The notes beneath the pieces are model-generated. The model had not been told where the DNA came from and made no database searches. It saw nothing but the letters and a program-made list of their open reading frames with translations. This document shows positions 7,278-44,737 of a stretch of 50,034 bases of DNA, piece by piece (the stretch's first letter is position 1; every line of letters begins with the position of its first letter). The stretch comes from Candidatus Thorarchaeota archaeon (GTDB lineage Archaea; Asgardarchaeota; Thorarchaeia; Thorarchaeales; Thorarchaeaceae). Made by a program: the position numbers and the translations under genes. The stretch is taken from positions 1 to 50,034 of the forward strand of contig WTCK01000070.1 of the NCBI GenBank assembly GCA_013138615.1, in the 5' to 3' direction.

Positions 7278-7904
7278 TTATGGAGTCGCTTGTGCCATGG
7301 CGCTTGTACGCATGGATTGCTGGAACAGAAGTTGGAATGCCTCGATTACATTGAAGCCACTCATGGCTACACTTCTGAATACCGGTATTGATAATGGAAG
7401 ATTAAGATGTTCCCTGAGCCGCTCCTCATTGATTGTATCTGGCAAATCCTGTTTATTGAGACAGACAACAATTGGAAGAGGGCGATCCCCTTCAATAATC
7501 ATGGCCATCAATTCATTCCAACTCTCAAGATTCTCATCAAGCAGATGCTCTTGAGAGTCAGCCACAAACACAACACCATCTGCGCCAACCAAAACAACCT
7601 CACGTGTTGATCTGTAGAAGTCCTGACCAGTTGCAGACCAGATATGTGCATTAATTCTCCAGCTGTCACTCAGATTGCAGGGAATTGTTCCGAAATCGCA
7701 GAACATGGTTCTACCCAGCGTGTTCTCTATCGATGTGAGCTTCTCTGTAATGCCTAGCTCCGAAAAAAGCCATCTGATTGTTGTGGTCTTTCCACTCATG
7801 GCTGGTCCGAAAAATACTATTTTGAGCCCAATCGTTCGGTTGCCATAATCTATGATCAAATGACTACCCTCCCACTCTATGTTCCCCACATGCTGTCTAC
7901 CCAA
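7278..7904 (-). CDS. MglA-like small Ras-superfamily GTPase
   Basis: 208 aa. G1 is KIVFFGPAMSGKTT. G3 is WSATGQDFY, which lacks the usual Asp as MglA TVPGQ does. The ADGVVFVADSQ segment and G4 LNKQDL closely track Myxococcus MglA (KIVYYGPGLCGKTT / TVPGQVFY / VDGVVFVADSQ / NKRDL, from memory). Last gene of a three-gene operon. Confidence 0.8.
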   Translation of the reverse strand: MGRQHVGNIEWEGSHLIIDYGNRTIGLKIVFFGPAMSGKTTTIRWLFSELGITEKLTSIENTLGRTMFCDFGTIPCNLSDSWRINAHIWSATGQDFYRSTREVVLVGADGVVFVADSQEHLLDENLESWNELMAMIIEGDRPLPIVVCLNKQDLPDTINEERLREHLNLPLSIPVFRSVAMSGFNVIEAFQLLFQQSMRTSAMAQATP

Positions 7905-25974: not shown

Positions 25975-27168
25975 CTATTTTAGCAGTTCCAAAAGAAATC
26001 GTTCTAGCATCTCAGCGGGCACGTCAGAGAGGCCAATGAGTGTGGTCTGTCCTCTTTGCCCCGCTCCAGAGCGCTTCGTATCTAGTACGCCATGTGCATT
26101 AAGGTTTTGAACCCATTCCCAGACTTGCGTGTGTGCCCGTGGCTCTTCGTCATATTCCTCACAGACTGCTCGATACATCTCTTCAACCTCCCCCATTGTC
26201 ACATAGGCACTCCTAACTTCCTTAAGTTGTCTAGCTGCGGCTAGAAGGACTAGTTTGTTGTGAATTGGAAGTGTAGCGAAAATCTCCTTTCGGAGCTCGG
26301 GATGTGTGTCGACCTTTGCTTGGCGGGCATAGTCAGGGATTACGATTTTTGCGCGGTTACGATCAGCTTGCTTTCCTGCTCGCCATAGTAGTTCGATGGC
26401 GTATCTGGCATCTCCTTGCTCCGATGCGATGTCAGAAATAACTTGCAGTGTTTCATCCATTACCGCGTCATTCTCGAAAGCAATCTTTACTCTATCTTCT
26501 AGAATAGCACAGAGAGCTTCTGAACTGTATCTCTCGAATCGCATAAGATTCCGCTGGAGAGTGCTCAAAATGCTTGAATCAAGGACGTCTCCATCGAGAG
26601 GTATATTTCGTCCCACTGCAATCATGGAGAGTCGTTGTGGTGCGTTCAATCGATCATCCATCAAACGTGTAAGGTCATATAGAATGTTACCTCCCCTCTG
26701 ATTGATGAAATAGTCAAGTTCGTCTAGAATCAGGAGCAGATAACGGTCCTCCGCATCTAGGATTTCTACTAACATCTGCAAAAGTTCTTCAGGCGAGTGG
26801 CCTCGCCGGGGGAATTTCGGTTTGAATTCTCTTAACATTCGCAAATACACTAGATACTCGCTCTTGTTAATCCTGCAGTTGATGTGAAGCTTATGCAGGT
26901 GAATTCCGCGTCTCTCGGCAGCTTGAACCATTTGTTCTGTGAATCGCTTTGCAACCGCCGTCTTGCCCGTCCCAACTGGTCCTTCAATTATAAATCGCTG
27001 ACTGGTGCGTCCTGGAGTTGTTATGAGTGTCTTGAAGCTCTGTGCCAAGGCCCTTAGTTCTAGTTCTCGATGTGGAAGAGCTTCAGGAACATAGTCGATG
27101 GATAGAAATTGCTCTGACTTGAACACACTGCGCCGACCCAGTTCTTCCTCAACATAATCGTGGGGCAT
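25975..27168 (-). CDS. cdc6: Orc1/Cdc6 replication initiator
   Basis: 397 aa. Walker A GPVGTGKTA, Walker B LLILDELDYF, the initiator-specific region, and a C-terminal winged helix (GRGQTTLIGL). Confidence 0.95.
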   Translation of the reverse strand: MPHDYVEEELGRRSVFKSEQFLSIDYVPEALPHRELELRALAQSFKTLITTPGRTSQRFIIEGPVGTGKTAVAKRFTEQMVQAAERRGIHLHKLHINCRINKSEYLVYLRMLREFKPKFPRRGHSPEELLQMLVEILDAEDRYLLLILDELDYFINQRGGNILYDLTRLMDDRLNAPQRLSMIAVGRNIPLDGDVLDSSILSTLQRNLMRFERYSSEALCAILEDRVKIAFENDAVMDETLQVISDIASEQGDARYAIELLWRAGKQADRNRAKIVIPDYARQAKVDTHPELRKEIFATLPIHNKLVLLAAARQLKEVRSAYVTMGEVEEMYRAVCEEYDEEPRAHTQVWEWVQNLNAHGVLDTKRSGAGQRGQTTLIGLSDVPAEMLERFLLELLK

Positions 27169-27637: not shown

Positions 27638-28771
27638 ATGTCGTCCCAAGAGCAGTCTGTGAATTTTTGGCAAGGAAACCATGCTTGTGCGAGGGCTGCA
27701 ATCGCCGCAGGATGCAGATTCTTTGCAGGCTATCCGATAACTCCTGCTTCGGAGATTGCAGAAATAATGGCGCGTCGTTTGCCAGAGGTGGGAGGCGTTT
27801 ATCTCCAGATGGAGGACGAGATTGGAGCGATTTCAGCAATAATTGGTAGTTCGTGGGGTGGAAAGCTCACGATGACTGCCACTTCGGGACCCGGCTTCAG
27901 TCTGATGCAGGAGAACATAGGATATGCCATTATGACTGAAACCCCCTGTGTAATTGTTAATGTGCAACGTGCTGGACCTAGTACAGGACAAGCTACGAAA
28001 GCAGCCCAAGGTGACTTCATGCAATCCAGATGGGGAACACACGGGGATCATGAAAGCATTGTCTTGGCACCAAGCTCCGCTCAAGAAACTTACGAGCTTA
28101 CAATAAGGGCATTTGAATTATCAGAACATCTCCGACATCCGGTGATACTTCTCTCCGATGAGATAGTGGCACATTCCCGAGAGAGAGTGGTTGTGGATCC
28201 CAACCTAAATGTTACCATCAAGAGAAGACTAGCAAGAGTCGGTGAGCTGCCGTATGGAGCGGTGGACAAGGAAGGCAGGTCAATGATGTTGAGATTTGGA
28301 GATGGTCACAATCTACTTGTCACTGGTTCCACTCATGATGACCATGGCGTCAGGAAGACCGCTGATCCCAAAGTACATGATAGACTTGTACGCAGGTTAG
28401 CAATGAAAATTCAAGAGAATCGCGATTTCCTAGCGGATGTTGTCGTTGCCGGCCCCTCCGAAGCTGAATGGGGCATCGTTTCATTTGGCTGCACTTCAAG
28501 GTCAGTTGATGAAGTTATGACCACTGATACCAGTGCAAGCTCAATCAAATCTCTAAGACTGCGTACTCTTTGGCCGTTCCCAGATAAGGAAATGAAGGAG
28601 TTCGCCCAAACTGTGAAGCGATTGCTCGTGCCGGAGCTCAACTTGGGGCAGTTGGCCGGAGAGGTGTCGCGTGCAGTTGGCGAATCCGTTGATGTGGTAT
28701 CCCTTAACAAGATTGGAGGAGGACTCATGATTGAGCCTAATGAGATAGTTGCTGCGATGGCGTCAATCTGA
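27638..28771 (+). CDS. korA: 2-oxoacid:ferredoxin oxidoreductase, alpha subunit
   Basis: 377 aa. The N-terminus GNHACARAAIAAGCRFFAGYPITPASEI is the KorA/PorA signature, and the length is normal for an alpha subunit. No beta, gamma or delta subunit gene follows. Confidence 0.85.
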   Translation: MSSQEQSVNFWQGNHACARAAIAAGCRFFAGYPITPASEIAEIMARRLPEVGGVYLQMEDEIGAISAIIGSSWGGKLTMTATSGPGFSLMQENIGYAIMTETPCVIVNVQRAGPSTGQATKAAQGDFMQSRWGTHGDHESIVLAPSSAQETYELTIRAFELSEHLRHPVILLSDEIVAHSRERVVVDPNLNVTIKRRLARVGELPYGAVDKEGRSMMLRFGDGHNLLVTGSTHDDHGVRKTADPKVHDRLVRRLAMKIQENRDFLADVVVAGPSEAEWGIVSFGCTSRSVDEVMTTDTSASSIKSLRLRTLWPFPDKEMKEFAQTVKRLLVPELNLGQLAGEVSRAVGESVDVVSLNKIGGGLMIEPNEIVAAMASI

Positions 28772-31065
28772 GCACTAAACTGTTCTACACTCGATTGGCC
28801 GTCCTGTCCGTGTCCGTCCACTGAGATTGTGAGTGTTAGATTCGTTCGCATCCAGATGATTATGGCTAGAAACCTGTTCGTGGTTTCGAGCCATGGACTA
28901 CTCACTTCGAATGTGATGTTGTGAGCTCCAGGATTAATCCAAAGAGGCAATGGAATCGAGCTAGGTACGTGCGGATTCAGATTAATCCATACGAAGAACG
29001 GACCTACAACATGATCTACAAAGACACTGACATTGATTGAACTTGGAATGCTGCCATTGTCATCGTGGATATCTAGATTCATGACGATGGTTTCTCCATA
29101 GAATGCCTCCATAATCACAATGTCTACATCCATTATTCCATAGATAATTAGGTCGAAATCGAATGGCCCTATTGCGATGTATTCTGTGTCGGTGATGCTT
29201 ACAGTAATCGTATGTACACCGAGACTCACATTGTGAGCTATTGCAAACGTGAGATTCACAGTCGTATCAGTTAGGATGAGTTCAGTTGTGGAAACCTGGT
29301 CTTCGCCGTCATTAAGAGTTGTCCCAATGGTCTGTTGGAGAGCCCATTCGGACTCTATCATGAAACTAACAGTTACATTGTGACCACGCATGACGCCCCA
29401 TATTGCTTGAGCAGAGGAGAATGTAAGAGGATAATATGTCATGAACTCAATGAGAAGTGTTGTTTCATAGACATGCTTTGAAGGCTCGCCAAGGATGATT
29501 AATGAGTAGTTTTTCAATCCCACTTGTGTTGTTTGCGTTGTGTACCATTGCAGCAGAATCAGACCCGTCACATCGCTCGAACCGGTTGCCAATGCATAGC
29601 CAGTGGAATTGCAAAATACGACAGAGATACCTCCAGCATCAGCATCCAGTGGGTTTGTCAGATGTAGCAATATCTCAGTTTCATAGCCAAGAACCGAAGG
29701 AAACAGTATCTCATAGGTGACTGCTGGGATGAATGAAATATTGAGTAATTCTTGGTAATGCATCTGGACGTAGTGAGTTGTTTCATTTGTTTGAACTGAA
29801 ATTACTCCTGTGCCCCAGCTTGTTTCCGGAATCAGAAAGGAGAGCCTAAAGCAGCCGGATTCATTGGTCGCTCCTTGGGCTACGAGTTCTGTACTGTTTC
29901 CGATTGTAAGAATAACAGATAGAGGAATGGCATTGATTGTAGTATTGGCTGCTTGATCTGTCACAACAACATCAATGCTAATTGACTGCCCACATATAGC
30001 AGGCTGTGCACTCTCGACATTGACAATCACATCTCGTTGGAGCGCGGTAATCAACACAGAAGCTGAAGCTACTTGATACGAGGGGGCGGTCGCAGTTACA
30101 TTGACACAGTAGAGGCCCGGGTCTACTGCAAAAGTGATTGTGGAACTGTATGTACCGTTTCCCAGGTTGGTCATGTTTCCATTTGTAAATTCAGTACTCC
30201 ATCTAACTATGCTATCGTTTATCGGCTCAGAGAGATGATTAAGATGTTTCACAAGCAATTCTGCCAAGTCAGCATGGCTCCCGTCGTGTGACTGGCAGTA
30301 TACTGAGTCAGAATGCGAGATTACTATCAAGCTAGATTCCGGGGGTTGAACAGTGAGTGTGAGAGATTTCGAAAGCGGATGAAATGCATCGGTGCCATTA
30401 CATGAAACTGTAAGGTTGTAGTCCCCGGGTGGCCCAAGCGATGAAGTCCAGTTCACTGTGACTACACCGTTATTGTCTGTTGTATCATTTGAGTGCATCA
30501 CTAATTGGCTGTTTGAGTCATAGATATCTATTGAAACTGGATTATTCGAGAGAGTTAAGTTGCTGTTGTGCGCGCTCACAATCTCAAGATCGAAACTCTT
30601 GTTTGTGCCATAAGGGACAGATAGTGGCTCCAGTGCGTATACTGTTAGTGGGCCCTTGGTTATGTTGATTTCTATGGTTTCACTCGCTCCTTGGGAATAA
30701 CCATCGAAGGTTTCGATATTGAAGATGACAAAGCCATTGGTCCCATTGATGCCTGGGAATGTATGTTCAGGCTGGATTGTGTATGAGGATGTGAGAATCC
30801 TAGTTTCTGGTGATGGCGGTATGAAATAGTCGTCATCAAAAACAGGTCCAAAGTCTGTGACTATTGCGAAAGAAACATAGCACCATCCATCCTCGCTGAA
30901 GTCAGCAGTGACCTTGGCTACCATGTGAATGGTTTCGCCAACCTCGTACGTTAGCTTGTCGGTTTCGAAGGAGTCAAACTCGAAGTAAAAGGCGCTAACT
31001 GGCGACATAAGACCAAAGGTAAGGAATACTGCGGCTGCGACGATAACTAGTGCGTTTCGATTCAA
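28411..31065 (-). CDS. Large secreted protein with repeated beta-rich (Ig-like) modules and many N-x-S/T sequons. The last ~120 codons are antisense to korA.
   Basis: 884-aa ORF with a TTG start (a TGA lies immediately upstream in frame). The signal peptide is MNRNALVIVAAAVFLTFGLMSPVSA. The composition is T/S/N/V/I-rich and no C-terminal anchor is recognisable. The reading frame stays open through 28771-28411, opposite the korA 3' end. Confidence 0.7.
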   Translation of the reverse strand: MNRNALVIVAAAVFLTFGLMSPVSAFYFEFDSFETDKLTYEVGETIHMVAKVTADFSEDGWCYVSFAIVTDFGPVFDDDYFIPPSPETRILTSSYTIQPEHTFPGINGTNGFVIFNIETFDGYSQGASETIEINITKGPLTVYALEPLSVPYGTNKSFDLEIVSAHNSNLTLSNNPVSIDIYDSNSQLVMHSNDTTDNNGVVTVNWTSSLGPPGDYNLTVSCNGTDAFHPLSKSLTLTVQPPESSLIVISHSDSVYCQSHDGSHADLAELLVKHLNHLSEPINDSIVRWSTEFTNGNMTNLGNGTYSSTITFAVDPGLYCVNVTATAPSYQVASASVLITALQRDVIVNVESAQPAICGQSISIDVVVTDQAANTTINAIPLSVILTIGNSTELVAQGATNESGCFRLSFLIPETSWGTGVISVQTNETTHYVQMHYQELLNISFIPAVTYEILFPSVLGYETEILLHLTNPLDADAGGISVVFCNSTGYALATGSSDVTGLILLQWYTTQTTQVGLKNYSLIILGEPSKHVYETTLLIEFMTYYPLTFSSAQAIWGVMRGHNVTVSFMIESEWALQQTIGTTLNDGEDQVSTTELILTDTTVNLTFAIAHNVSLGVHTITVSITDTEYIAIGPFDFDLIIYGIMDVDIVIMEAFYGETIVMNLDIHDDNGSIPSSINVSVFVDHVVGPFFVWINLNPHVPSSIPLPLWINPGAHNITFEVSSPWLETTNRFLAIIIWMRTNLTLTISVDGHGQDGQSSVEQFSAQIDAIAATISLGSIMSPPPILLRDTTSTDSPTARDTSPANCPKLSSGTSNRFTVWANSFISLSGNGQRVRSLRDLIELALVSVVITSSTDLEVQPNETMPHSASEGPATTTSARKSRFS

Positions 31066-31186
31066 TCAGCACACCAAATGTCAGTCATCATGTCACCTAA
31101 AAAACGGCACTTGATATAGCGACAGGTTTAATTCAAGACCGCTTAGCCTCAGTGCGACGCTGAAGGAACACGGAGTGCTGTAAGCG

Positions 31187-31552
31187 ATGGTCATTAGGTT
31201 GAGGAATGCTACAATCAAGGCAATTGAAGATACAGAAACAAAAAGGTTGAAGCTTCTGAGAATTGTATCCAAGGCTGAAGGAGCCAAATTGACATTGGAA
31301 CTTCCAGAAGCACTTTGCGATAAGATGAATGTGCGTGATGGCATCGTGGTTATTGTCGATTCGAAACCAATTGCGAAAGGAGACAAAAGCAAACTCTATG
31401 CAGAGGGCGAAATCTTCAAGATTGGAGAGGGTGGCGACTTTGAGGTGGTGGGAGCGATAGGTGGTTTGAGGTTCGTCCTTACTCTTGCTAATCCAACGCC
31501 AGCGAAGAAGAAGGTTTTTGCTGCTGATAGATTCTATTTGATGCTCTTATAG
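31187..31552 (+). CDS. Putative RNA polymerase subunit Rpo8 (RpoG), RPB8-like
   Basis: 121 aa. By eye it aligns with yeast Rpb8. LRIVSKAEGAKLTLELPEAL...DGIVVIVDS matches CRIEAAS...CKLTLDINVELFP..DSLTVTIAS. LYAEGEIFKIG...VVGAIGGLRFVLTL......ADRFYLMLL matches YVMYGTAYKF....YYSFGGLLMRLEG.....ENAYLLIRR. It lies next to a TFB gene. Confidence 0.45.
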   Translation: MVIRLRNATIKAIEDTETKRLKLLRIVSKAEGAKLTLELPEALCDKMNVRDGIVVIVDSKPIAKGDKSKLYAEGEIFKIGEGGDFEVVGAIGGLRFVLTLANPTPAKKKVFAADRFYLMLL

Positions 31553-31757
31553 CGATCTAGCACGGTAACAAATTGGGGTTTCTGAGTTTTTCGTCAATGG
31601 ATTTCTGGCAGGCGGGAGTGCCAGTGTTGAATAGTTTCAGTGACCTCTCATTCTGAGGAGGCCATCAGTAACTGCTTGGCCTCTGTGCAAGTCCATTTGA
31701 GTAGACGAATAATTTCTGTGAACGTATTGAATCCTTCTGAAACTCAGTTATGAGTTG

Positions 31758-32816
31758 ATGCCTAATTCGATACGGGTGTGGTCATTGACTGATGGAATGA
31801 TTGAATCATCAAGTTTGACGTCTTGGTCTTGTCCTGATTGTAGCGGGCGATTGCTACACAGTCAAGGATACATAGTCTGTTCTGAATGCGGTATTGCAAT
31901 CTCGAGAAAGTATGTCAATCCCACTTACCAGATGGGTGAGAAAGTGCGTAGCGATGCTCCGGATGCGACCATGTACGTTTCTCTCGGTAATAGAATGCAC
32001 ATTGTTGATGGGCTTGGTAGTTACATAGGGTTTCACAAGGACTGGTATTTTCGTGATGCACACGGCCATTCACTATCCGCGGTAAGCCAGAAGAGATTCA
32101 AGCGTCTGAAGAGAATATACAGTACTCAAGTGCGAATTGGAGGGAATGAGGCAAAATATCGTGCTCTTAGAACACTGAATCATGTGTCAAAGCTATTGAT
32201 GCTGAATGAACAAGTGCGTGATCGCACTGCATACCTATACAAGAAAGTGGTTTCGGAATCTTCTGACAGGGTGACCAACAACATTCTGCTCATGGCAGTA
32301 TGTCTCTTGATGGCAGTGAGGGAATTCAAAGATGGCGCACCGATAACACTTGAAGAAATTGCTGATGTTTTCGAGAAATGCGGACATAGAGTGAGCGTAA
32401 GATCAATGGTTAGAGAGGCACTTAGACTCAAGTCTATGATGGGATATGCTCCCGCGATTCGTAAGCCAAGGGACTATGTGCCTCGAATCTTGTCAATGTT
32501 AATGAATAATCAGAGAGTCACAAGCAAAGTAAGGCTTCGTGGATGGGACTTGAAGGCCTATGAGAGTGCCCTTAGAGATAGAATCTTTGAAATTCTTGAG
32601 TTGATTCCTGCGTCTAAACGTGGGGGACGGAATCCATTCATCTTCACCGTATCAGCAGCCTACGCTAGCGATCGGTTAATTGCTAATGAATATGGTAGAC
32701 GGACAGTATTGACTCAAAAGCTGGCGTCCACAGCAACGCAGGTTGCTGAATACAGTATTCGTGACCATTTTGGTATGATGAAGAAACTTATTCAGCCTGT
32801 AGAAAAGGCAGTCTAG
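31758..32816 (+). CDS. tfb: Transcription initiation factor B (TFIIB family), divergent paralog
   Basis: Zn ribbon CPDCSGRLLHSQGYIVCSECGIAIS followed by two cyclin-like repeats (RTAYLYKKVV...ILLMAVCLLMAVRE; FIFTVSAAYASDRL). ATG at 31758 is preceded by an in-frame TTG at 31755. There is a ~25-aa N-terminal extension before the ribbon. Confidence 0.85.
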   Translation: MPNSIRVWSLTDGMIESSSLTSWSCPDCSGRLLHSQGYIVCSECGIAISRKYVNPTYQMGEKVRSDAPDATMYVSLGNRMHIVDGLGSYIGFHKDWYFRDAHGHSLSAVSQKRFKRLKRIYSTQVRIGGNEAKYRALRTLNHVSKLLMLNEQVRDRTAYLYKKVVSESSDRVTNNILLMAVCLLMAVREFKDGAPITLEEIADVFEKCGHRVSVRSMVREALRLKSMMGYAPAIRKPRDYVPRILSMLMNNQRVTSKVRLRGWDLKAYESALRDRIFEILELIPASKRGGRNPFIFTVSAAYASDRLIANEYGRRTVLTQKLASTATQVAEYSIRDHFGMMKKLIQPVEKAV

Positions 32817-32981
32817 AAATGTCAGGGCGAACTCGAAACGACACTATTGAACAGCGTGTTTTCGGCAGCATATGGTGATGCTAGTGGATGGATTCGTGGC
32901 ACTGAGTAGGGGAATGAGTCGTTTCGACTAGGTGCTTAAATTTCCAACAAAGAGAGTATCATTCGACTGATGTAAGGTAGG

Positions 32982-34679
32982 ATGTGTCTTTTGGTGACTA
33001 GTCATGATGTACTCATTGTAGAGTGTCCCAATACACGATGCAATGGCTGTCGCTACTTTTCAGCCCCGATATGTGGCAAGCTTGAATCTCTACGGGACAC
33101 CTCAAATCATCAAGCAAGGGCGATTATTTTGGAAACTGAAAAGAATCTTGTCCATCTTGGAGGGCATAACATAGGACGCCCACTAGAACCCCCTTGGCAT
33201 GCTGAGGGCTGGGAATCCGTGTACATAGGCGAAAATGAATCTGATCTTCGGAATGTTGTGGATGCCTATGTTGTTGGACCATATTTAGCTGTATTCTATC
33301 TGCAAGGAAAGAATCAGATTATGTATAGGTCATATCCATTAGTTAGAACATCTCTTGAATATGCGCTTCTAGATGAATTGTCTGGCAAGACGGGGGACCT
33401 TGCAAATAGCTATTCGGACTTTAGAGTTAGCATTTCTGAAAGAATCAGTGTCACGTCATCCCGGGTTTCATCAAGTATCACTGAGTCACTTCCTGAGATA
33501 AGTGAATCAACCAAGAAAAGGATTTCAGATGTTGTTGCCCATAGAATGACTGTATTGGGATTGTTCTTCTCATTATTGCTGGACGATGAAGTCGAAGAGG
33601 TCTTTCTGGACAGGCCAGGAGCAGTGCTATACTTTGATCATCAGAGGTTTGGTCGATGTCATTCCAATTTCACTTTAACTGACAATATGGTGTCACGCCT
33701 TGTTACACTGATGCGAGCAGAGAGCAATCTACATCTGGATCGAGCAAATCCTTCATTAAAAACCGACATGCGAATAGCCGGCACGCTTCTTCGTTTTTCT
33801 GCATGTGTACCACCATTAAGTCCAGACGGCCTGCACCTTGAAATTCGAAGAGCACGATCGAGTCCGTACACCATTTTGGATTTGATAATTAATGGTACAT
33901 TGACCGTTGGCGCAGCAGCAACACTACTTGCTGCAATAGCTGGACGCTTCAACATTACTATTACTGGAGGGCCGGGTTCTGGCAAGACTACTTTATTGAA
34001 CGCACTGGATATGGTTACACCAACCACTTGGAGAAAAATCTACATCGAGGATGCTGTTGAGAGTAGATTAGTTGAAGGGCACCATCAAATCAGGATAAAG
34101 GTCGACCCAGTGGATGAAAAAAGCAAACAATCTGACAAGAGTATTGAGATAGTGAAGAGCTTGCATCGATCACCTGACTATCTGATTCTAGGTGAGATTC
34201 AGACAGCTGAACACAGCCAAGCATTGTTTCAAGCGGTAGCAGCAGGACTGCGTACAATTCAGACATGTCACAGCGACTCAGCAGCAAGTCTCATGTCCCG
34301 GTGGATAATAGGACACAAAGTTGATTCATCCAGCATTGCTTTGATGGATGTCATAGTTACTCTCGACCGGCCAGTGCCTGGACAGTCAAGACGTCATGTG
34401 AAGGAAATTGTCGAAGTGAGGAGAGATATTGACCACCGCGGTGTGGTCTTTGTGGGACTTAACAAGGTCTTTGATTTGCGAAGCTCAGGGACCGAGGTCA
34501 GAGAGTGGGCTAAGGACGGAGCTTTCAGATTGCGTGCACAGACTGCCAGTTGTAAGGATTACGTTCAAGTGTTTGAAAGGGCAGCGGACGGCCTCAGATT
34601 TGCACTTGAAGAAGATTCCATTGACTCGGTTACCTCACTGGTCGGGGAATTGTGGTGCAATGAGCACGATATAGTTTAG
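32982..34679 (+). CDS. Type II/IV secretion-family ATPase (VirB11/FlaI/PilB/TadA-like)
   Basis: 565 aa. Walker A ITGGPGSGKTTLLNAL (nt ~33963-33992), Asp box IYIEDAVE, Walker B DYLILGEIQTAE and His box TCHSDSA. The N-terminus is Cys-rich (C2, C15-x4-C20-x2-C23, C31). Confidence 0.8.
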   Translation: MCLLVTSHDVLIVECPNTRCNGCRYFSAPICGKLESLRDTSNHQARAIILETEKNLVHLGGHNIGRPLEPPWHAEGWESVYIGENESDLRNVVDAYVVGPYLAVFYLQGKNQIMYRSYPLVRTSLEYALLDELSGKTGDLANSYSDFRVSISERISVTSSRVSSSITESLPEISESTKKRISDVVAHRMTVLGLFFSLLLDDEVEEVFLDRPGAVLYFDHQRFGRCHSNFTLTDNMVSRLVTLMRAESNLHLDRANPSLKTDMRIAGTLLRFSACVPPLSPDGLHLEIRRARSSPYTILDLIINGTLTVGAAATLLAAIAGRFNITITGGPGSGKTTLLNALDMVTPTTWRKIYIEDAVESRLVEGHHQIRIKVDPVDEKSKQSDKSIEIVKSLHRSPDYLILGEIQTAEHSQALFQAVAAGLRTIQTCHSDSAASLMSRWIIGHKVDSSSIALMDVIVTLDRPVPGQSRRHVKEIVEVRRDIDHRGVVFVGLNKVFDLRSSGTEVREWAKDGAFRLRAQTASCKDYVQVFERAADGLRFALEEDSIDSVTSLVGELWCNEHDIV

Positions 34680-34752
34680 ATTCATCCAGAGCAGCACAAC
34701 CCTCGGTAAATGCGAGTTCCTGAAGGAGTTAAAATAGCGCTCAAAGAGATTA

Positions 34753-34974
34753 GTGATTAGGTGCATATTGATGGCTGATAATGATGACCTTCTTCACGAT
34801 ACTCACGCAGGCCCATTAGTGGAGGAGAGCCTGCTACTAGGCATAGCGGTAGTGACTGTTTCTATCGTAATCGCAGTAATCCTGCAAGCCACTGGTTGGG
34901 CTCAAGATGTAGTCACTAGCCTTCTTCAGCTTTTAGAGAATAGCTGGAGTGATTTTGCTGGGCTGGTCCCGTAG
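34753..34974 (+). CDS. Small Flp-like / class III signal peptide pilin candidate
   Basis: 73 aa from GTG 34753, or 67 aa from ATG 34771. The sequence is MADNDDLLHDTHAG|PLVEESLLLGIAVVTVSIVIAVIL...: a Gly, then Glu at +4/+5, then a ~22-aa hydrophobic helix and a short C-terminal tail. This is the architecture of Flp/Tad and archaeal class III signal peptide mini-pilins. A TTAAAATA box lies at ~34727. Confidence 0.5.
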   Translation: MIRCILMADNDDLLHDTHAGPLVEESLLLGIAVVTVSIVIAVILQATGWAQDVVTSLLQLLENSWSDFAGLVP

Positions 34975-35088
34975 ATTCCGCTTGCGTGTCCGAGTCGTTC
35001 CCATGGAGTTACTCGTTCTGGTTCGGCCCACATCATGTATGCAGCAAGAATTGCTTTTCGGAATGAAATAAATCAAATCGTGGGAAAG

Positions 35089-35099
35089 CCTTATTTATA
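35089..35099 (+). promoter_or_regulatory. TATA-like box upstream of tRNA-Glu
   Basis: CCTTATTTATA lies 38-48 nt upstream of the tRNA 5' end, which implies a short leader. Confidence 0.3.
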
Positions 35100-35136
35100 G
35101 TTGGAGAGGTTTCGCGCTTCGGACTCGACTAGGATG

Positions 35137-35213
35137 GCTCCGGTAGTGTAGTCCGGCCAGCATGGGGGACTCTCGATCCCCCGACCCGGGTTCAAATCCC
35201 GGCCGGAGCACCA
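35137..35213 (+). tRNA. tRNA-Glu(CUC), CCA encoded
   Basis: GCTCCGG TA GTGT AGTCCGGCCA GCAT G GGGGA CTCTCGA TCCCC CGAC CCGGG TTCAAAT CCCGG CCGGAGC A CCA. 77 nt and all stems pair. Confidence 0.85.
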
Positions 35214-35223
35214 CCTCTTTCTT

Positions 35224-37170
35224 TCAAGTTAACATATATCGACGCCTGATTAATGGTATGCTAACTAGGCTAATTGACAAACAAGAACCAATAGCTAGGG
35301 CGACTATTCCGATGCCTTGAGCCGCTGAAACATCGGCTTCTCCAATCACAATTACAGCTGATCCTGCGTATGATTGAAGAGAGCCTGATGCTTCAGATTC
35401 GTACGATAGAAGATAGCTACCCGCTGTGGAGGGAATCGCTAGGTGCAGACTGATCAAACCATGATTACTGCTATCTATTTCCATATTAGCTGATAGCCAT
35501 CCGTAACTTATTGGAATGCTTCTTAGTAATGACCCATTCAACCCTTGAATGGTAAGTTGAACGTATATCTCCTTGAGCTGCGGTATTATTTCGTAGTAAT
35601 CGAAAATAATTATGACAGGTATCGTTTTGGCTACAGTGAAACTATACTCCAGGATGACCGAGAGTTCGTATGCTGACTCATTTCCGCTGCATACAATTAG
35701 GAAAACAAAGTGGCCTTCACTGGAAGGTGCCAAGAAAGCCATAGTTGCAATGCCGACCTGATTAGTTATCGACTGTGAAATGAGAGTGCTATTAATCGAG
35801 TGGACTTCCACTAGTTTGTTGGAATAGTTGGCATTGTTATTGATAAGGTGGACTACAAGCAATATCTCTTGTTGGGGAGATGCAAATCCCAAGATGTTGC
35901 TCTGATTCAGTGACAACGTAGGACGAAACCATATTGGTTCACTGAACCAGTAAGTTCCATTGGTGACGTATTGTGCATCATTGACCGTAATGATGAATTC
36001 CCTGATTCCTTTAGGTCCTGTTATGGGTAGAAAGAGCTGAGTTGAGTTGCTGTTGCCAGTCAGGGGTTCTGTAACTGCTTTTTCAGTTAGTGTATCGAGA
36101 ATAGTAATGGATGCACCGGGAATCGGTCGATTCAGAATGTCCTGCACCACCACTGAGATCTCAAGTTCGGTCCCAGTGACAATGTACTCTGGTAAGAACG
36201 CTTCAATCAGCACAGGGCTTGTGACAATGAAATGAATTTGAAGAATTGAAATGCTGTATCGGTCAGTTCCCGTGTATTCAATTATCAGTGTGTGGTTGTT
36301 CAGAGAGATTCCTTCATTGATTCGTAAATCAAGAGTTGCTACGCCTGAGCCGTTGGTCGTTATCGAGGATTGTGTTGTGCCATCAAGCGATACCATCATG
36401 AGGCCGTTGGGCAATGTTTCTTCGTTGGCCCAAAGCGTGAGGGAGAGAGTAATTGAATCGTTCAAAGTGACAATATCAGATAGAGCATTGTCGTGTTTGA
36501 TGAGGGTCGCAATCTGCTCTACTGTTATGGAAAACGATGTTTCTACGCCTTTTTGAAAAAGCGCCAAGTTCCCTTCATAGACAACAGAAACAGTATTCGC
36601 ACCTAGCTGTGCCCAAGAAGTGTTACAGTGGAAAGAGAAACTGACACAGCCGGTGTCATTGGTGATACCAGAGCCAAGTGGCAATGAATCACTGAACACC
36701 ATAAGAGAAGCGCCTGAAAGCGATTCGTTCATGTCGTTAAGGAGGCGGACTATGAGATTCAGATCGTCACCTGGCGCCAAATCACTGTCCTTGACTTGAA
36801 TCTCCATTGTTGTTGCTGAAACAACTGTAAGTGGCATCCACTGGCAGGAAGGCGAGAGTGAAAGTGATTGATTGCCGCGAAAAGTCGCATTAATCATCAT
36901 AAAACCCAGTGGATGTTCGGAGGGGAGAGGCCAATCGATGTATGCTAAGCCATTTGAATCGGTCATGTCCGAACCAAGAAACGAATCGTGGGTCTGGTCG
37001 AAGAATTCTATTCTCTGGTTGACAACTGGGTCCCCATAGGTTCCATTTTGCAATAACTGAGCAGTAATGGTTATGGTTTCCCCTCTGGAAACAACATTTT
37101 CGCCTTCAGCGGAAACGGTAGTCATGCTGCTTATGAATAGAAGAGAAACAGCAGCTAAAACAATCAGCAA
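35224..37170 (-). CDS. Large secreted surface protein, Ig-like repeats, C-terminal transmembrane anchor
   Basis: 648 aa with a TTG start. The signal peptide is LIVLAAVSLLFISSMTTVSA|EGEN. It has numerous N-x-S/T sequons and repeated D.NG.A modules (TDSNGLAYI, NDTGCVSF, TNGSGVATL, TNQVGIATM). The C-terminus is GIGIVALAIGSCLSISLVSIPLIRRRYMLT (TM plus basic tail). Confidence 0.75.
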   Translation of the reverse strand: MLIVLAAVSLLFISSMTTVSAEGENVVSRGETITITAQLLQNGTYGDPVVNQRIEFFDQTHDSFLGSDMTDSNGLAYIDWPLPSEHPLGFMMINATFRGNQSLSLSPSCQWMPLTVVSATTMEIQVKDSDLAPGDDLNLIVRLLNDMNESLSGASLMVFSDSLPLGSGITNDTGCVSFSFHCNTSWAQLGANTVSVVYEGNLALFQKGVETSFSITVEQIATLIKHDNALSDIVTLNDSITLSLTLWANEETLPNGLMMVSLDGTTQSSITTNGSGVATLDLRINEGISLNNHTLIIEYTGTDRYSISILQIHFIVTSPVLIEAFLPEYIVTGTELEISVVVQDILNRPIPGASITILDTLTEKAVTEPLTGNSNSTQLFLPITGPKGIREFIITVNDAQYVTNGTYWFSEPIWFRPTLSLNQSNILGFASPQQEILLVVHLINNNANYSNKLVEVHSINSTLISQSITNQVGIATMAFLAPSSEGHFVFLIVCSGNESAYELSVILEYSFTVAKTIPVIIIFDYYEIIPQLKEIYVQLTIQGLNGSLLRSIPISYGWLSANMEIDSSNHGLISLHLAIPSTAGSYLLSYESEASGSLQSYAGSAVIVIGEADVSAAQGIGIVALAIGSCLSISLVSIPLIRRRYMLT

Positions 37171-37472
37171 GGGAACTGCACTGCTTTTCAGGATAGATTC
37201 CTCCTCGATTTGGGGTTTGAGCTCCGTTTGCCTGTGTTTTGCTTGCTGTGGTGCGAAGTAACAGGTCTGGATTACTCTAAAGTGAGTCGCGAACCGGGGT
37301 TATTAACCTCCTACAGTTACTGCGTTGTTTCTCAATGAACCAAGTTGTAAGATAACTGGGGGAGTTCTTATGGAGAAATCTGAAACTATGAACTGACCGC
37401 ATATCTATGCTGAAGGAATTGAGTATTGTCATCTGCAACAGACGAAATCCGCTCTATCATACGGCCTAGAAT

Positions 37473-40400
37473 ATGACAAAGAGAGATGAGAAGGTGATAC
37501 AGATATTCAGTCGCACGCATCTAGGACTGTGGACCTTGGTCAGAACAATGTGGATTGGTGGCACGATTATATGTGGTATCTACATGATGTTCGTGTACTT
37601 GTTACCTCTTGTCGGTTTGATCCAACAGCCGCCTGTGCCTTTGAAACTGACTGTCGAGGTCATTGTTTGTGCAATACCAATCCTGTCAGGTGGGTTGCTG
37701 ACCAGTGAGAGAATTCGTAATGACGAATTGTCAGTTCTTATCGATGAAAAGTTCCTTGTTATTCAGCTGGATAGGCATGTTGTTGTGACTTGCGCACTAG
37801 AACTTGCTTCTGTGCCTAGCTCAATTGTTGTTTTTCCGGGTAAGGAGCCTAGGTATAATGCCGCACTGCTATTAGCACTGCGTGCAGGCTTGGATAGCAG
37901 AGTTTCCATGGCCTATGAGGTGGGAGTAGAGAAAGGGGAACCATTCCTGCGGTTGTTCATAACTGCATCTGGAAAGAATCTAACGGAAATCAAGGAGATT
38001 TTGAGGCGAGAAGCCACTCGAACGGAAGCTATTCTTTTGGCTTCTTTGAACGGGGTTGAGGTGCATCAGCTAGGAGAAGACAAGCTGAGGGGAGCGAGTG
38101 AAATAGTGCATCGTTTAGACTCGTTGAGAAAGCCTTCAGCATTGGTTCATGATGACGGGATGCTTCAGTCACTCACATTCATTGTGGGAATCCCCAGAGT
38201 TGCGCCTTCGATTGATGCCTCGCAGGTTGGCACATTCATCTCTACTGCAATCAAACAGAGATACTCTGTCACACTTACTTGTGTATTCTCAAGTGCAAAA
38301 GCGGGCAGAGAGAGGAAAAGAATGGAAGGAGAATGGAAAAACATTCGCGCAAAGGAGCTAAGGAATGAGGATTCCTTGACTGATCATGCCAACAAGAGAA
38401 AACTTCTAGATCAACATGAGAGAATGCATGGTGATTCTGGATGGTTTGATAACTCCGTGTACGTTCTTGCTAAGGCCAAGAATACTGCTGAACTTGAAAG
38501 GGTGACGAATGGTGTAAACGGTCTTATCGCCTCAATTTGGGGTGGGGAAGGAAACATTTCCTTGAAAAAAAGAGGAATTCGAGGCAGAACTGTATGTAGA
38601 CTTATCACCAGACGCCATTTCAAACGTCAGAAAATCCATGTGAGTTCCTTAGTGGGCTACGTAAACACCCCTATACAACAGCTTCCTGTGATTGCAGCGA
38701 CCGTGGCTCCAGTTTTTCCAGTTCCGCTAAGGAAGCTGATAGATAATGATCTAATCATTGGAGAGACAATCTACGGAGGGCGACGCATTAGTGATATCGG
38801 GATTAGACCGGAGTGGCTGCGAGAACATGTTGCAGTTCTCGGCGCTACGGGCACGGGTAAGACAAATCTTGTGAAGAAATTGATGCTTGAATTGAGTTTG
38901 AAGACTGATGTTCCTTGGTGGGTGTTTGATATCAAAGGATCTGAGTATGCGGACCTTGCTGGATGGGACTCCGACATTCTCATACTCAGTCCGGGAAAGG
39001 ATGCCTCTTTCGTGATGGATTTGTTAGACATTGAAATGGATTCAAGTGAGGTAGATGCGCATGCAACTTTTGCGATACTAAGGGAGCTCATAAATGAAAG
39101 AGGCGTGTCATCTGAGCTTTCACCTGCCATGGAGAAGCTCTTACGAGAGTCAGTAATGGAGTTAGCGGAATCAAGGCATGCAACGAAGTCAGTCCAAGTC
39201 CTCAACCAGATTATCTCGAAGTTGGCTGGCAATGATCGCTTTGGAAGCATGACTAGGGATGCGCTTCTTAACCGTCTTGAGATATTATCACGTGAACCCC
39301 TTGGGTCCATACTGAAAGGGGGAGCAGAAGCACTCAAGATTTCTACTTTGTTGAACAAGCGTGTGGTATTCGACATGCGCCACATTGCAAGGGTAGGTGG
39401 GATGGATGCGGTTCGAATCCTCTACAATCTTGTCGCCAAGAGAATATTCGACAGTGCCATGAAACGCGGAATAAAGCCTGGACTGCATCATGTGGTAGTT
39501 CTTGAGGAGGCGAGCAATTTGGTGCCTGAGAGCTACACAAGGCATTCCGCAGCAGATGTCACCACTGGTGAGTCGATGGTTATGCTTCAACGGGCCACCG
39601 GACAAGGAGTCATTGTTGTATCAACAAGACCGAACATTTCCTCGAACATTTTAGCCAATACTGCAACTAAGATTACATTTCGTCTGCCGTACGACAGCTC
39701 CATTGGGTCTAAGTATATGGCTCTCAATGCTGAACAGGAAGAGTACCTCAAATCACTGAAATGCGGCAGAGCCCTCATTCATGTTCCAAGTTCTAGTACT
39801 TTCGAAATTGCCACTAAGCTGTTTGTACCCATGTCTGGAATCTTAGGAAAGGATGCCAAAGAAGCTGTCACTCAAGGCTGTGAGAAAGCTGAATTAAAGA
39901 CAGTCGTGCACGAAGCGTCTGTTATTATCAAACCTGAGAGGGTGGTGTCTGATCGACTAGGTGAGCTGGCAAACCATGTAGTTGCTTTTCTCGCATCTAG
40001 AGATATGGCCACTGAGATTGAGATTAGGAGCCTATTGATGACTCTGGATTCGCAATTTGCTGAAAATGACATTGCTGAGATAATCCGCGACCTTGTTTCT
40101 CTGGGAGCTATTGCACGCGAAGCGCTTTCACTTGTACCTGGGGGTTTTGTGTTTACAGTACCAGGCAGAGAATTGGAAGCTGTTAGGAACGTCATTATGA
40201 ATTACATGACTCGCCGCCTGGACTCGGTTCATAACCTTGAATATCAGAAGCTGGATTCGAATGGAGCACAATTGATTGCCTGCAATCATGCTATACTCAT
40301 CTTGCCAAACCATCTGAAAGCATCTTCCATTGAATCGGTTTTAGGACAGATTGGAGCGTGCATGAGTGAGCTCGGGAATAATATCAACAAGTTGGTGGTT

Positions 40401-41225
40401 GTGGTGAGAGGAAGCATCGCCGCAGCCAAATTAAGAGAACTCATTGACCGTTCAGAAACATTTGATGCTGTGACTGTAATCTCAGCTTTTCCCAGCTCTC
40501 TAAACAAGGTAGTGGATGAACTTGTCCATGGAAAGCCACATAGGAGCGAAGTGGTTGAAGAGCAGCTTGGTGTGGTTGCCAAATTCTCCAAATCAGAAAG
40601 GGTTGATTTACGAGGAGCTGTGCATGATGTCGGTTCGGCTACGAGTCGTGCAGTCCAAATGCGTCTCTGGTTTGGTTTGATCGAAGACTTCGTTGATTTG
40701 TCGAATGGACATATTGTGTGGGATGCCCTTCTAGAATTCATCGACACTACTGCGTTGCAGTCACTCAAAGGGAGGTCGGCCCCCATGAGTGTCGAGGAAG
40801 GCAAACGTGCTCTCACAGAACTCCTTGCTGATGAGGTGCTTGTGGCGTTACGTGTTGGAGCCGAGAAGCGATATACTGATTTCGAGAAGAACCTCTGGAT
40901 TGTAAATTCATCAGTGCTGAAAGAACTCAAGGAGAGAGCTATTAATCTATTAATTGAAGAGAGTGGGAAACAGAATGAATCTATTTCTCAAGGCCATGAA
41001 TACTATGATTTCTGTGTTGGTAAAAAATCTTATGTTGTATTTCCAACACAGCAACAGCTTAACACGCTTCTGAATCTTCATAGTGATGTGGCATGCCGGA
41101 TTTGCGGGTCAACGCAAGTGATATGCCTCCTAACAGCAGCTGAGTATCTTGATGATGGTGCCATAGTTCCAGCGAATTTGATCATGAAAACGATGGATGA
41201 TGCGATTGCAGAAATGTTAGTATAG
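37473..41225 (+). CDS. Membrane-anchored giant HerA/VirB4/FtsK-superfamily ATPase (DUF87-like core) with long unassigned N- and C-terminal regions
   Basis: 1250 aa. There are two N-terminal hydrophobic helices (MWIGGTIICGIYMMFVYLLPLVGLI; LTVEVIVCAIPILSGGLLT). Walker A is HVAVLGATGTGKTNLVKKLM (nt ~38841). Walker B is HHVVVLEEASNLVPE (nt ~39487). The sensor region VIVVSTRPNISSNILANTATKITFRL is HerA-like. About 350 aa before the core and 450 aa after it match nothing I recognise. Confidence 0.75.
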   Translation: MTKRDEKVIQIFSRTHLGLWTLVRTMWIGGTIICGIYMMFVYLLPLVGLIQQPPVPLKLTVEVIVCAIPILSGGLLTSERIRNDELSVLIDEKFLVIQLDRHVVVTCALELASVPSSIVVFPGKEPRYNAALLLALRAGLDSRVSMAYEVGVEKGEPFLRLFITASGKNLTEIKEILRREATRTEAILLASLNGVEVHQLGEDKLRGASEIVHRLDSLRKPSALVHDDGMLQSLTFIVGIPRVAPSIDASQVGTFISTAIKQRYSVTLTCVFSSAKAGRERKRMEGEWKNIRAKELRNEDSLTDHANKRKLLDQHERMHGDSGWFDNSVYVLAKAKNTAELERVTNGVNGLIASIWGGEGNISLKKRGIRGRTVCRLITRRHFKRQKIHVSSLVGYVNTPIQQLPVIAATVAPVFPVPLRKLIDNDLIIGETIYGGRRISDIGIRPEWLREHVAVLGATGTGKTNLVKKLMLELSLKTDVPWWVFDIKGSEYADLAGWDSDILILSPGKDASFVMDLLDIEMDSSEVDAHATFAILRELINERGVSSELSPAMEKLLRESVMELAESRHATKSVQVLNQIISKLAGNDRFGSMTRDALLNRLEILSREPLGSILKGGAEALKISTLLNKRVVFDMRHIARVGGMDAVRILYNLVAKRIFDSAMKRGIKPGLHHVVVLEEASNLVPESYTRHSAADVTTGESMVMLQRATGQGVIVVSTRPNISSNILANTATKITFRLPYDSSIGSKYMALNAEQEEYLKSLKCGRALIHVPSSSTFEIATKLFVPMSGILGKDAKEAVTQGCEKAELKTVVHEASVIIKPERVVSDRLGELANHVVAFLASRDMATEIEIRSLLMTLDSQFAENDIAEIIRDLVSLGAIAREALSLVPGGFVFTVPGRELEAVRNVIMNYMTRRLDSVHNLEYQKLDSNGAQLIACNHAILILPNHLKASSIESVLGQIGACMSELGNNINKLVVVVRGSIAAAKLRELIDRSETFDAVTVISAFPSSLNKVVDELVHGKPHRSEVVEEQLGVVAKFSKSERVDLRGAVHDVGSATSRAVQMRLWFGLIEDFVDLSNGHIVWDALLEFIDTTALQSLKGRSAPMSVEEGKRALTELLADEVLVALRVGAEKRYTDFEKNLWIVNSSVLKELKERAINLLIEESGKQNESISQGHEYYDFCVGKKSYVVFPTQQQLNTLLNLHSDVACRICGSTQVICLLTAAEYLDDGAIVPANLIMKTMDDAIAEMLV

Positions 41226-44467: not shown

Positions 44468-44737
44468 GTGGACTACTGTGAGAAGCCAATGCTCTTCGAG
44501 TTGCTAAGCCCACTTACTGATTTTGCGATTCTCATTGCAGGGTACTTTGCCGAAATATGGGAATTTTTGATTTTCATTGGTCGCGTTTCAGCAAGCGTCA
44601 TTGTGCTTATCGGAGCAATACTATGGTTTACAGAGGCCAATATGAAGAGAGGTAAGGGATTAGTGTTTAGTGGCATACTCTTGGCAATCGTAATTCAGTA
44701 CTTTGTTATGTATCCTCCAGCGTTCAGCCTCGGTTAA
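44468..44737 (+). CDS. Small integral membrane protein (2-3 TM), unknown function
   Basis: 89-aa ORF (GTG start; an alternative ATG gives MLFELLSP). The hydrophobic segments are DFAILIAGYFAEIWEFLIFIG, VSASVIVLIGAILWF and LVFSGILLAIVIQYFVMY. Confidence 0.45.
   Translation: MDYCEKPMLFELLSPLTDFAILIAGYFAEIWEFLIFIGRVSASVIVLIGAILWFTEANMKRGKGLVFSGILLAIVIQYFVMYPPAFSLG

Follow-up and report, generated by a model that had tools for sequence, protein, structure and literature searches.

In a 50,034-nt stretch of DNA from Candidatus Thorarchaeota archaeon (contig WTCK01000070.1, GCA_013138615.1; hereafter the window), we analysed the interval 28411-41225 and its surroundings, and we give about an even chance to the reading that this interval is a vertically inherited chromosomal neighbourhood with two separable gene sets. 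Set A, which would be a counterpart of the archaeal subsystem 4D, comprises rpo8, a TFB paralog, a filament-type ATPase and a 67-aa gene (mini67), all on one strand in that order. Set B, which would be of conjugation type (Ced/Ted-like), comprises a 648-aa anchored glycoprotein, a 1250-aa VirB4/CedD-like ATPase and an 82-aa two-helix protein. Neither set is characterised so far, and a literature search found no description of either in Asgard archaea. A previous sequence-only reading of the window had listed open reading frames (ORFs) whose coordinates were all borne out and which are real, conserved genes, but it overlooked rpo8 (31187-31552), a tRNA-Glu gene (35137-35213) and the 82-aa gene (44489-44737). 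Its statement that the combination fits no described archaeal system was wrong: rpo8 with a TFIIB homolog, a Cys-rich ATPase and a membrane protein is the combination of 4D, and transmembrane (TM) helices with a VirB4-like domain and an ATPase are that of CedD. The genes of both sets and the secreted glycoprotein gene beside Set A are as follows.

28411..31065, minus strand: 884-aa secreted immunoglobulin (Ig)-like/MG-domain glycoprotein without an anchor, with a signal peptide and 27 N-x-S/T sequons
31187..31552, plus strand: rpo8 (rpoG), RNA polymerase subunit Rpo8/Rpb8, 121 aa, assigned from Pfam matches over orthologs and the predicted fold
31755..32816, plus strand: divergent TFB/TFIIB paralog with a Zn ribbon (CPDC...CSEC) and a cyclin fold; probable start ATG 31758
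32982..34679, plus strand: T2SSE type-IV-filament-superfamily hexameric ATPase, 565 aa, with an N-terminal C-x4-C-x2-C-x8-C motif
34771..34974, plus strand: mini67, acidic single-TM protein, 67 aa, with the invariant core GPLVEESLLLG[IL]AVVTVSIVIAVILQATGWAQDV
35224..37170, minus strand: 648-aa Ig-repeat N-glycoprotein with a signal peptide, 16 sequons and a C-terminal TM anchor
37473..41225, plus strand: VirB4/CedD-like membrane-anchored ATPase, 1250 aa, with two TM helices, a VirB4-like N-terminal domain and a HerA/VirB4 core
44489..44737, plus strand: 82-aa protein with two hydrophobic helices and a basic loop, a candidate VirB2/VirB3/CedA1-like partner, outside the interval

The window was compared with Thor-type loci (including L001, L003, L005 and L013), with a rearranged relative (L018) and with 11 non-Thor loci from Baldr-, Odin-, Ran-, Hel- and Freyarchaeota and three further relatives (L019, labelled Asgardarchaeia; L020; L021). 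Of these, L008-L011 are Baldr-/Odin-type, L017 is from Ranarchaeia and L015 is Freyarchaeota-type. Three homologue searches, with the best 120 matches each, were all saturated with Thor-type sequences. Gene order was kept in four Thor loci whose proteins are ~50% identical to those of the window, with Cdc6 and oxidoreductase alpha genes flanking on one side and IPK, S10 and GlmS genes on the other. This synteny says little about a functional link, because the housekeeping flanks are equally syntenic. The VirB4-like gene stood beside a pilus-type ATPase within Thorarchaeota only: in 11/11 non-Thor loci neither the filament ATPase, the TFB paralog, rpo8 nor mini67 was found within 10 kb of it. 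Furthermore, a metagenome scan for Set A returned only Thor loci. The co-conservation expected by the sequence-only reading was thus partial; the 648-aa gene and the VirB4-like gene stayed together in Thorarchaeota, L018 and L021, whereas the filament ATPase, mini67 and TFB genes did not accompany the VirB4-like gene in the non-Thor loci.

The same reading had treated the interval as one system that recalls the Sulfolobales Ups pilus plus Ced importer, a claim that is unproven. In such an integrated apparatus for contact-dependent DNA exchange, the ATPase with mini67 as pilin would form contact filaments, the glycoproteins would serve recognition, the VirB4/CedD-like protein would be the DNA motor and the TFB paralog, like TFB3, would be the switch. 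We regard it as unlikely. The rearranged L018, like Thorarchaeota, does keep the ATPase, rpo8, 648-aa homologue, VirB4-like and two-helix genes together; in L018 rpo8 adjoins the ATPase gene and the TFB paralog lies 5 kb off. In L009 and L010 a glycoprotein gene and a T2SSF-like gene lie at most 8 kb from the VirB4-like gene, and in Sulfolobales cedD is described apart from cedA/A1/A2/cedB yet required together with Ups pili, with tfb3 and Orc1-2 controlling the response. However, the four Set A genes do not lie near the VirB4-like gene outside the Thor lineage, the synteny within that lineage is unspecific, and the fetched L018 locus holds no mini67 homologue, though the ATPase is retained there. 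In addition, no common upstream motif that a dedicated TFB could read was seen by eye. Sets A and B may cooperate in an Ups/Ced-style pilus plus DNA transfer.

The gene content and order of Set A are established. We identify the 121-aa ORF as Rpo8 because of Pfam matches over its orthologs, 35/63 of which matched PF16992 (RNA_pol_RpbG), and because of its predicted fold. Its AlphaFold model (predicted local distance difference test, pLDDT, 92.6) gave 49 top Foldseek matches in the PDB that were all Rpo8/Rpb8, with a TM-score of 0.79 to Sulfolobus acidocaldarius RNA polymerase chain G (7oq4_G, 7ok0_G). Sequence alone did not show this: neither a PDB profile search nor hhalign to yeast Rpb8 gave a match. 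Two Thor-typical Rpo8 orthologs (P0436 and P0452; 55-57% identical) are labelled 'Thermoplasmata archaeon M9B2D' at NCBI, which may be a mis-binned or mislabelled metagenome-assembled genome (MAG). The neighbouring ORF, read before as a divergent TFB paralog, has one recognisable TFIIB cyclin repeat (PF00382, 27.9 bits; cutoff 23.6) besides the Zn ribbon and matches PDB TFIIB with an E value of 0.0075. We treated it as a paralog because it scored far under the cutoff of the TFB subfamily model (56.7 bits; cutoff 384) though the domain-level match passed. Its identity over Thorarchaeota is 74-76%, which is the level of GlmS.

The 565-aa protein had been placed in the VirB11/FlaI/PilB family by its signature boxes. 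It is indeed a filament-type ATPase (Pfam T2SSE, 7.9e-20) but not VirB11 proper, which matched at only ~1e-4, compared with 1.6e-28 for afGspE (2OAP), 5e-17 for CpaF and, as the third of the nearest solved relatives, FlaI. The top NCBIfam model was the TadA family. The Walker A motif (GGPGSGKT), the DYLILGEIQ box and the CHS box were invariant over orthologs, and the Cys motif was conserved in the window, L001 and L018. The protein aligned to afGspE residues 36-416, with ~85 residues beyond.

An uncharacterised T2SSE ATPase encoded with a TFIIB homolog and RPB8 was described in Pyrobaculum/Thermoproteus as subsystem 4D, for which a move away from pilus biogenesis to a role related to transcription was suggested (Makarova, Koonin & Albers 2016, PMC4858521). 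A 2026 census still confined 4D to these genera (bioRxiv 10.64898/2026.04.22.720090). Set A likewise combines a T2SSE-family ATPase that has a small N-terminal Cys-rich region with an adjoining membrane protein, a TFIIB homolog in a predicted operon and an adjacent rpo8, and its function is as uncharacterised. It differs in its host, an Asgard archaeon, and in the secreted Ig-like proteins that flank the operon, since 4D loci are without pilins or secreted proteins. Set A is perhaps a Thor-lineage variant of 4D, with the 884-aa glycoprotein perhaps included. It could be an ATP-driven membrane module built on mini67 oligomers, which would either extrude a tiny Flp-like filament via a platform encoded elsewhere or have been repurposed for a transcription-linked role, as proposed for 4D.

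Judged from its codons, mini67 is a genuine and very strongly constrained gene, because synonymous changes far outnumber non-synonymous ones: over the 34-codon core, the window differed from genomes otherwise ~50% identical by 19-22 synonymous codons versus 1 non-synonymous codon. The core was invariant but for the Ile/Leu alternation in four Thor genomes, and the fifth (L013) has WAQEV. Upstream of the gene are a TATA-like box of its own and a GGTG motif. Among the best 120 of 375 homologues, all were at least 68% identical and every named one was labelled Thorarchaeota. We found no Pfam family (E<=10), PDB match, pilin family or solved pilin for the protein; it belongs to no known family and is among the most strongly constrained genes of the region. 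Homology to the 82-aa two-helix protein was ruled out (hhalign probability 0.2%). The mini-pilin ORF of 67-73 aa in the sequence-only reading is a real, conserved gene of 67 aa from ATG 34771, and its reading as a pilin is unproven. Mini67 may be a minimal filament subunit or a membrane docking partner.

It is doubtful, in our view, that the ATPase and mini67 form an ordinary Tad/Flp- or Epd-type adhesion pilus, whose platform and peptidase would be encoded elsewhere and to which the VirB4-like gene would be a mere neighbour. Several features are those of such a pilus. The size and helix layout of mini67 are Flp-like, and its Gly14 is followed by PLVEES, which puts a Glu at +5 as in Flp (G/XXXXEY). 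Its strong promoter-like signals lie directly downstream of the ATPase gene; the ATPase has TadA as its top NCBIfam family and CpaF as a close solved relative; and in another Asgard lineage a T2SSF-like gene lies beside the 648-aa homologue. However, mini67 matches no pilin hidden Markov model (HMM) or solved pilin, and its leader has no basic residue, with Pro at +1, Glu at +4 and Ser at +6. The leader appears to fail the archaeal class III pattern, reportedly that of FlaFind (Szabo, in 2007). The entire mini67 protein, not its N-terminal helix alone, is almost invariant, with the C-terminal half conserved nearly as strongly as the helix; it carries nine acidic and no basic residues, and no sequon. 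As had been noted before, the 50-kb window codes for no polytopic membrane protein and no prepilin peptidase. Linkage with rpo8 and a TFB paralog fits the pilin-less 4D type, and the 2026 census found filament systems nearly absent from Asgard archaea (bioRxiv 10.64898/2026.04.22.720090).

For Set B, the fold, the domain order and the conserved neighbours are established. The 1250-aa protein had been described as combining two N-terminal TM helices with a HerA/VirB4-type core that recalls conjugation and Ced ATPases, and the present data agree. Two hydrophobic helices precede a motor with its Walker A motif (GATGTGKT) at residues 457-464. At the sequence level the P-loop core alone was recognisable (DUF87/HerA, 5.5e-16), and the top NCBIfam model was CedD (2.5e-11), whose architecture the protein shares. 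With the predicted structure (residues 85-1250, pLDDT 73.8), the first Foldseek match was TrwK/VirB4 of the R388 secretion system (E 1.7e-19, ~800 columns), in an alignment spanning both the N-terminal domain and the motor. HerA (1.9e-12), DndH-C and TrwB (4e-9) ranked lower, and the VirB4 C-terminal domain 4ag6 gave a TM-score of 0.72. A HerA-NurA system was not indicated: the HerA model NF040937 scored 26.8 bits (cutoff 800), the match was to the P-loop core only, and no locus had NurA, Mre11 or Rad50 neighbours. The ~450-aa C-terminal extension is predicted to contain two alpha1-beta1-alpha2-alpha3-beta2-beta3 units, which we infer to be winged-helix-like.

Among the matches listed, full-length homologues of the 1250-aa protein were 50-93% identical and came from MAGs labelled Thorarchaeota, Promethearchaeota or Sifarchaeia, and in an exhaustive search full-length orthologs were limited to a few clusters at 50% identity. 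Beyond these, a wider family (25-32% identity) shares its N-terminal domain and motor. All named members of the wider family are Asgard (Baldr-, Hel-, Ran-, Frey-, 'Asgardarchaeia' and Odin). At least six Asgard lineages besides Thorarchaeota have relatives of the protein.

The two large proteins with signal peptides were confirmed to be rich in sequons (27 and 16), with a TM anchor in the 648-aa one only. The gene for the latter is transcribed divergently from the VirB4-like gene in the window and in Thorarchaeota, and its homologue in L018 adjoins the VirB4-like gene on the same strand. In L021 a 647-aa homologue (BLASTP 1e-21), also with a signal peptide, sequon-rich repeats and a C-terminal anchor, is again divergent from the VirB4-like gene, with all other neighbours unrelated. 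The adjacency of the two genes cannot be attributed to general synteny, because it is kept in L021 despite different flanks. In L009 and L010, Odin-/Baldr-type contigs, the gene for the glycoprotein homologue, 8 kb upstream of the VirB4-like gene, directly precedes one for a 7-TM protein of 489-492 aa (L009 2100-3578; L010 352-1821). This protein has two cytoplasmic helical regions and a weak T2SSF match (E 0.0064, below cutoff), and is a candidate Asgard filament platform (PilC/TadC/FlaJ).

A gene for a two-helix protein of 79-83 aa lies directly upstream of the VirB4-like gene in five non-Thor loci (L008-L011 and L017). It lies 0.7 kb from the VirB4-like gene in L018 and within 3.3 kb of it in Thorarchaeota; in the window its homologue was found by tblastn (1e-12) 3.3 kb past the VirB4-like ATPase. 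Matches of the family to the Pfam model TrbC/VirB2 were below threshold and came from Baldr-/Odin-type copies only; a PDB profile search was null, as was hhalign to a VirB2 sequence. Set B has the appearance of a minimal envelope module of conjugation type (Ced/Ted-like), domesticated and Asgard-wide. In our model, the 1250-aa ATPase would sit at the membrane via its own two helices and the small 82-aa partner, would bind DNA through its C-terminal winged-helix-like domains and would spend ATP moving DNA across or along the membrane, with the 648-aa glycoprotein as a contact or adhesin part.

We consider it rather improbable that the 1250-aa protein is not a DNA-exchange motor at all but an FtsK/SpoIIIE-like segregation or division pump, or an exporter or assembler of the neighbouring surface glycoprotein. 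The VirB4-like gene was present in every Thorarchaeota locus fetched, at a conserved position, and its constant pairing with a surface protein would suit export. The domain order of FtsK, TM - linker - motor - winged helix, is that of the 1250-aa protein. In different Asgard lineages the VirB4-like gene has replication genes at a distance of a few kb, namely Orc1/Cdc6 in Thorarchaeota, L018 and Ranarchaeia, the RFC small and large subunits and a Sld5-like GINS gene in L018, and an OapC-like gene in Baldrarchaeota (window 25975-27168, Orc1/Cdc6; L018 401-4857 and 13976-14542; L011 14740-15126). Because they are often so close, the FtsK-like idea gains some weight. However, VirB4 leads the fold matches and no FtsK structure was in the top 50, and the Pfam model FtsK_SpoIIIE (PF01580) stayed below its cutoff (17 versus 24 bits). 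Furthermore, the arrangement with a small two-helix gene just before the VirB4-like gene is that of virB3/virB2-virB4, and the winged-helix-like domains argue for a nucleic-acid substrate.

A mobile element or conjugative island was ruled out, because GC content is uniform, being flat over the region, and the housekeeping flanks are syntenic in all Thor loci, where the position of the tRNA-Glu gene is also kept. As to a defence system, PADLOC gave generic P-loop (mad8/HerA) matches only and no recognisable system.

Several points weigh against the reading of two separable sets of Ced/Ted and 4D type. For Set B, the 1250-aa protein is far under the curated cutoffs of CedD (43 versus 600 bits), CedB (21.8 versus 700) and VirB4_CagE (18.2 versus 643). 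DNA binding by its C-terminal domains is read from secondary-structure topology, and an HMM search of these domains supported no family. The 82-aa protein is a candidate VirB2/VirB3/CedA1-like partner by architecture and position, and the Hel and Frey loci as well as L019, L020 and L021 have the VirB4-like gene with no detectable small partner. No VirB6/CedA-like channel, relaxase or coupling protein was found in the window or the fetched loci. The T2SSF-like neighbour in L009 and L010 links the glycoprotein family no less to filament machinery than to the VirB4-like ATPase, so the family may also be connected to such machinery. For Set A, the match to 4D is partial and by gene content, set against the published descriptions and lengths. 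The 4D ATPases (arCOG05558) have 335-343 aa and no C-terminal domain, and their partner has 4-5 TM helices (arCOG05557/13890) (PMC4858521), whereas the Set A ATPase has 565 aa with a C-terminal region and its partner 67 aa with one helix.

A bolder proposal, which we offer tentatively, goes beyond the two-set reading. Asgard archaea would have a vertically inherited, domesticated conjugation-type machine that exchanges chromosomal DNA between cells, made of the VirB4/CedD-like membrane ATPase with winged-helix DNA reading, a VirB2/VirB3-like two-helix protein and an adhesin with Ig repeats and an anchor. Its Thorarchaeota form would be joined to the filament-derived ATPase module with the TFB paralog and Rpo8.

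The remaining features around the two sets are given below.

25975..27168, minus strand: Orc1/Cdc6, a context gene near the VirB4-like gene in Thorarchaeota, L018 and Ranarchaeia
27638-28771, opposite strand to the 884-aa ORF: pyruvate/2-oxoacid:ferredoxin oxidoreductase alpha gene
35137..35213, plus strand: tRNA-Glu(CUC), between mini67 and the 648-aa gene

The final ~125 aa of the 884-aa ORF (28411-28771) are antisense to the 3' end of the oxidoreductase alpha gene. We conclude that the functional protein ends effectively near residue 760 and that the remainder is a read-through tail, because the tail is antisense to the oxidoreductase gene, holds only one of the 27 sequons (26 are in the first 760 aa) and has no counterpart in the 551-aa ortholog of L003, which ends short of that gene. 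Ortholog lengths range from 551 to 884 aa. The protein gave weak MG2/CarboxypepD_reg matches, and no homologue was detected in L018 or the non-Thor loci. In close relatives and in L001 the long ORF also extends by ~290-360 nt over the oxidoreductase alpha gene, on its antisense strand (convergent overlap), and the gene caller in two relatives retained the long ORF and discarded the oxidoreductase gene. In the divergent 122-nt spacer between the 884-aa gene and rpo8 (31066-31186), the blocks CCTAAAAAACGGCAC and GACAGGTTTAATTCAAGACC were conserved in 4/4 genomes compared; the spacer is probably a bidirectional promoter.

Other observations concern the VirB4-like gene and the tRNA gene. An element GGGG[AT]GTTCTTATG, which may be a promoter or mark a leader, lies ~100-115 nt upstream of the VirB4-like start (window ~37355-37370) and was conserved in L001, L003 and L005. 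In Baldrarchaeota (L011 2934-3827) a 297-aa protein with ~10 TM helices matched Pfam Presenilin (3.3e-9, just over cutoff) ~6 kb upstream of the VirB4-like gene. In the Freyarchaeota-type locus (L015 1-9000) that gene lies beside HamA and a DEAD-box helicase (Hachiman-like), a DUF1156 methyltransferase and an EVE-domain gene, a setting that looks like a defence island. The Ranarchaeia locus encodes an Rpo1 fragment with an intein (PF14890) inside the Rpb1_5 domain (L017 19123-21561). The tRNA-Glu(CUC) genes of L001 (~7700-7800) and L003 (~7680-7770) have an intron-like insertion of ~32 nt after GCTCCGGTAG; those of the window and close relatives are without it.

Among known organisms, Asgard archaea are most closely related to eukaryotes. 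Provided that Set B moves DNA, it would give these archaea their first candidate system for passing DNA from cell to cell, would extend the idea of domesticated conjugation (Ced/Ted) beyond Thermoproteota, and would bear on gene exchange in the lineage from which eukaryotes arose. Set A puts the 4D combination of a filament-type ATPase, a TFIIB homolog and Rpo8 in a second phylum. Rpo8 has been reported from two archaeal groups only, Thermoproteota and Asgard archaea; the link between a secretion-type ATPase and transcription becomes more credible because the 4D combination is now in the same two groups, and it is now open to comparative testing.

Compared with Tad/Flp and archaeal Epd pili, Set A has a related ATPase and, in mini67, a short protein with one hydrophobic helix and a Gly followed by Glu at +5. 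It lacks a nearby TadB/TadC platform or peptidase, and mini67 differs from Tad/Flp pilins in matching no family and in its acidic leader, Pro at +1 and Ser for Tyr at +6. The UV/DNA-damage regulon of Sulfolobales also includes a Cdc6/Orc1 paralog, a TFB paralog, a filament ATPase and a VirB4-like TM ATPase. Here these genes are clustered, the TFB paralog is full length whereas TFB3 is truncated, and there is no UpsF-like platform, UpsA/B-type pilin or CedA. FtsK/SpoIIIE proteins have a membrane anchor, a hexameric motor and a C-terminal winged-helix module that reads DNA; the 1250-aa protein shares the N-terminal anchor, the RecA-type hexameric FtsK-HerA motor and, by prediction, the winged-helix module. 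It differs from them in a fold closest to VirB4, a Pfam match below threshold and a large VirB4-like N-terminal domain. From CedD and VirB4 it differs in its C-terminal extension with winged-helix-like units, in its low CedD score and in that no CedA/VirB6-like channel was found with it, and the candidate 82-aa partner has no detectable similarity to the VirB2 of VirB4 systems. CedD itself, which is essential for DNA import in Saccharolobus, consists of TM helices, a VirB4-like N-terminal domain and an ATPase. Like CedD/CedB, TedB and VirB4 (TrwK), the 1250-aa protein joins a TM region and a VirB4-like domain to a HerA/VirB4-type ATPase, and like the CedD, CedB and TedB systems, Set B is chromosomal and domesticated, with a small hydrophobic-helix partner nearby.

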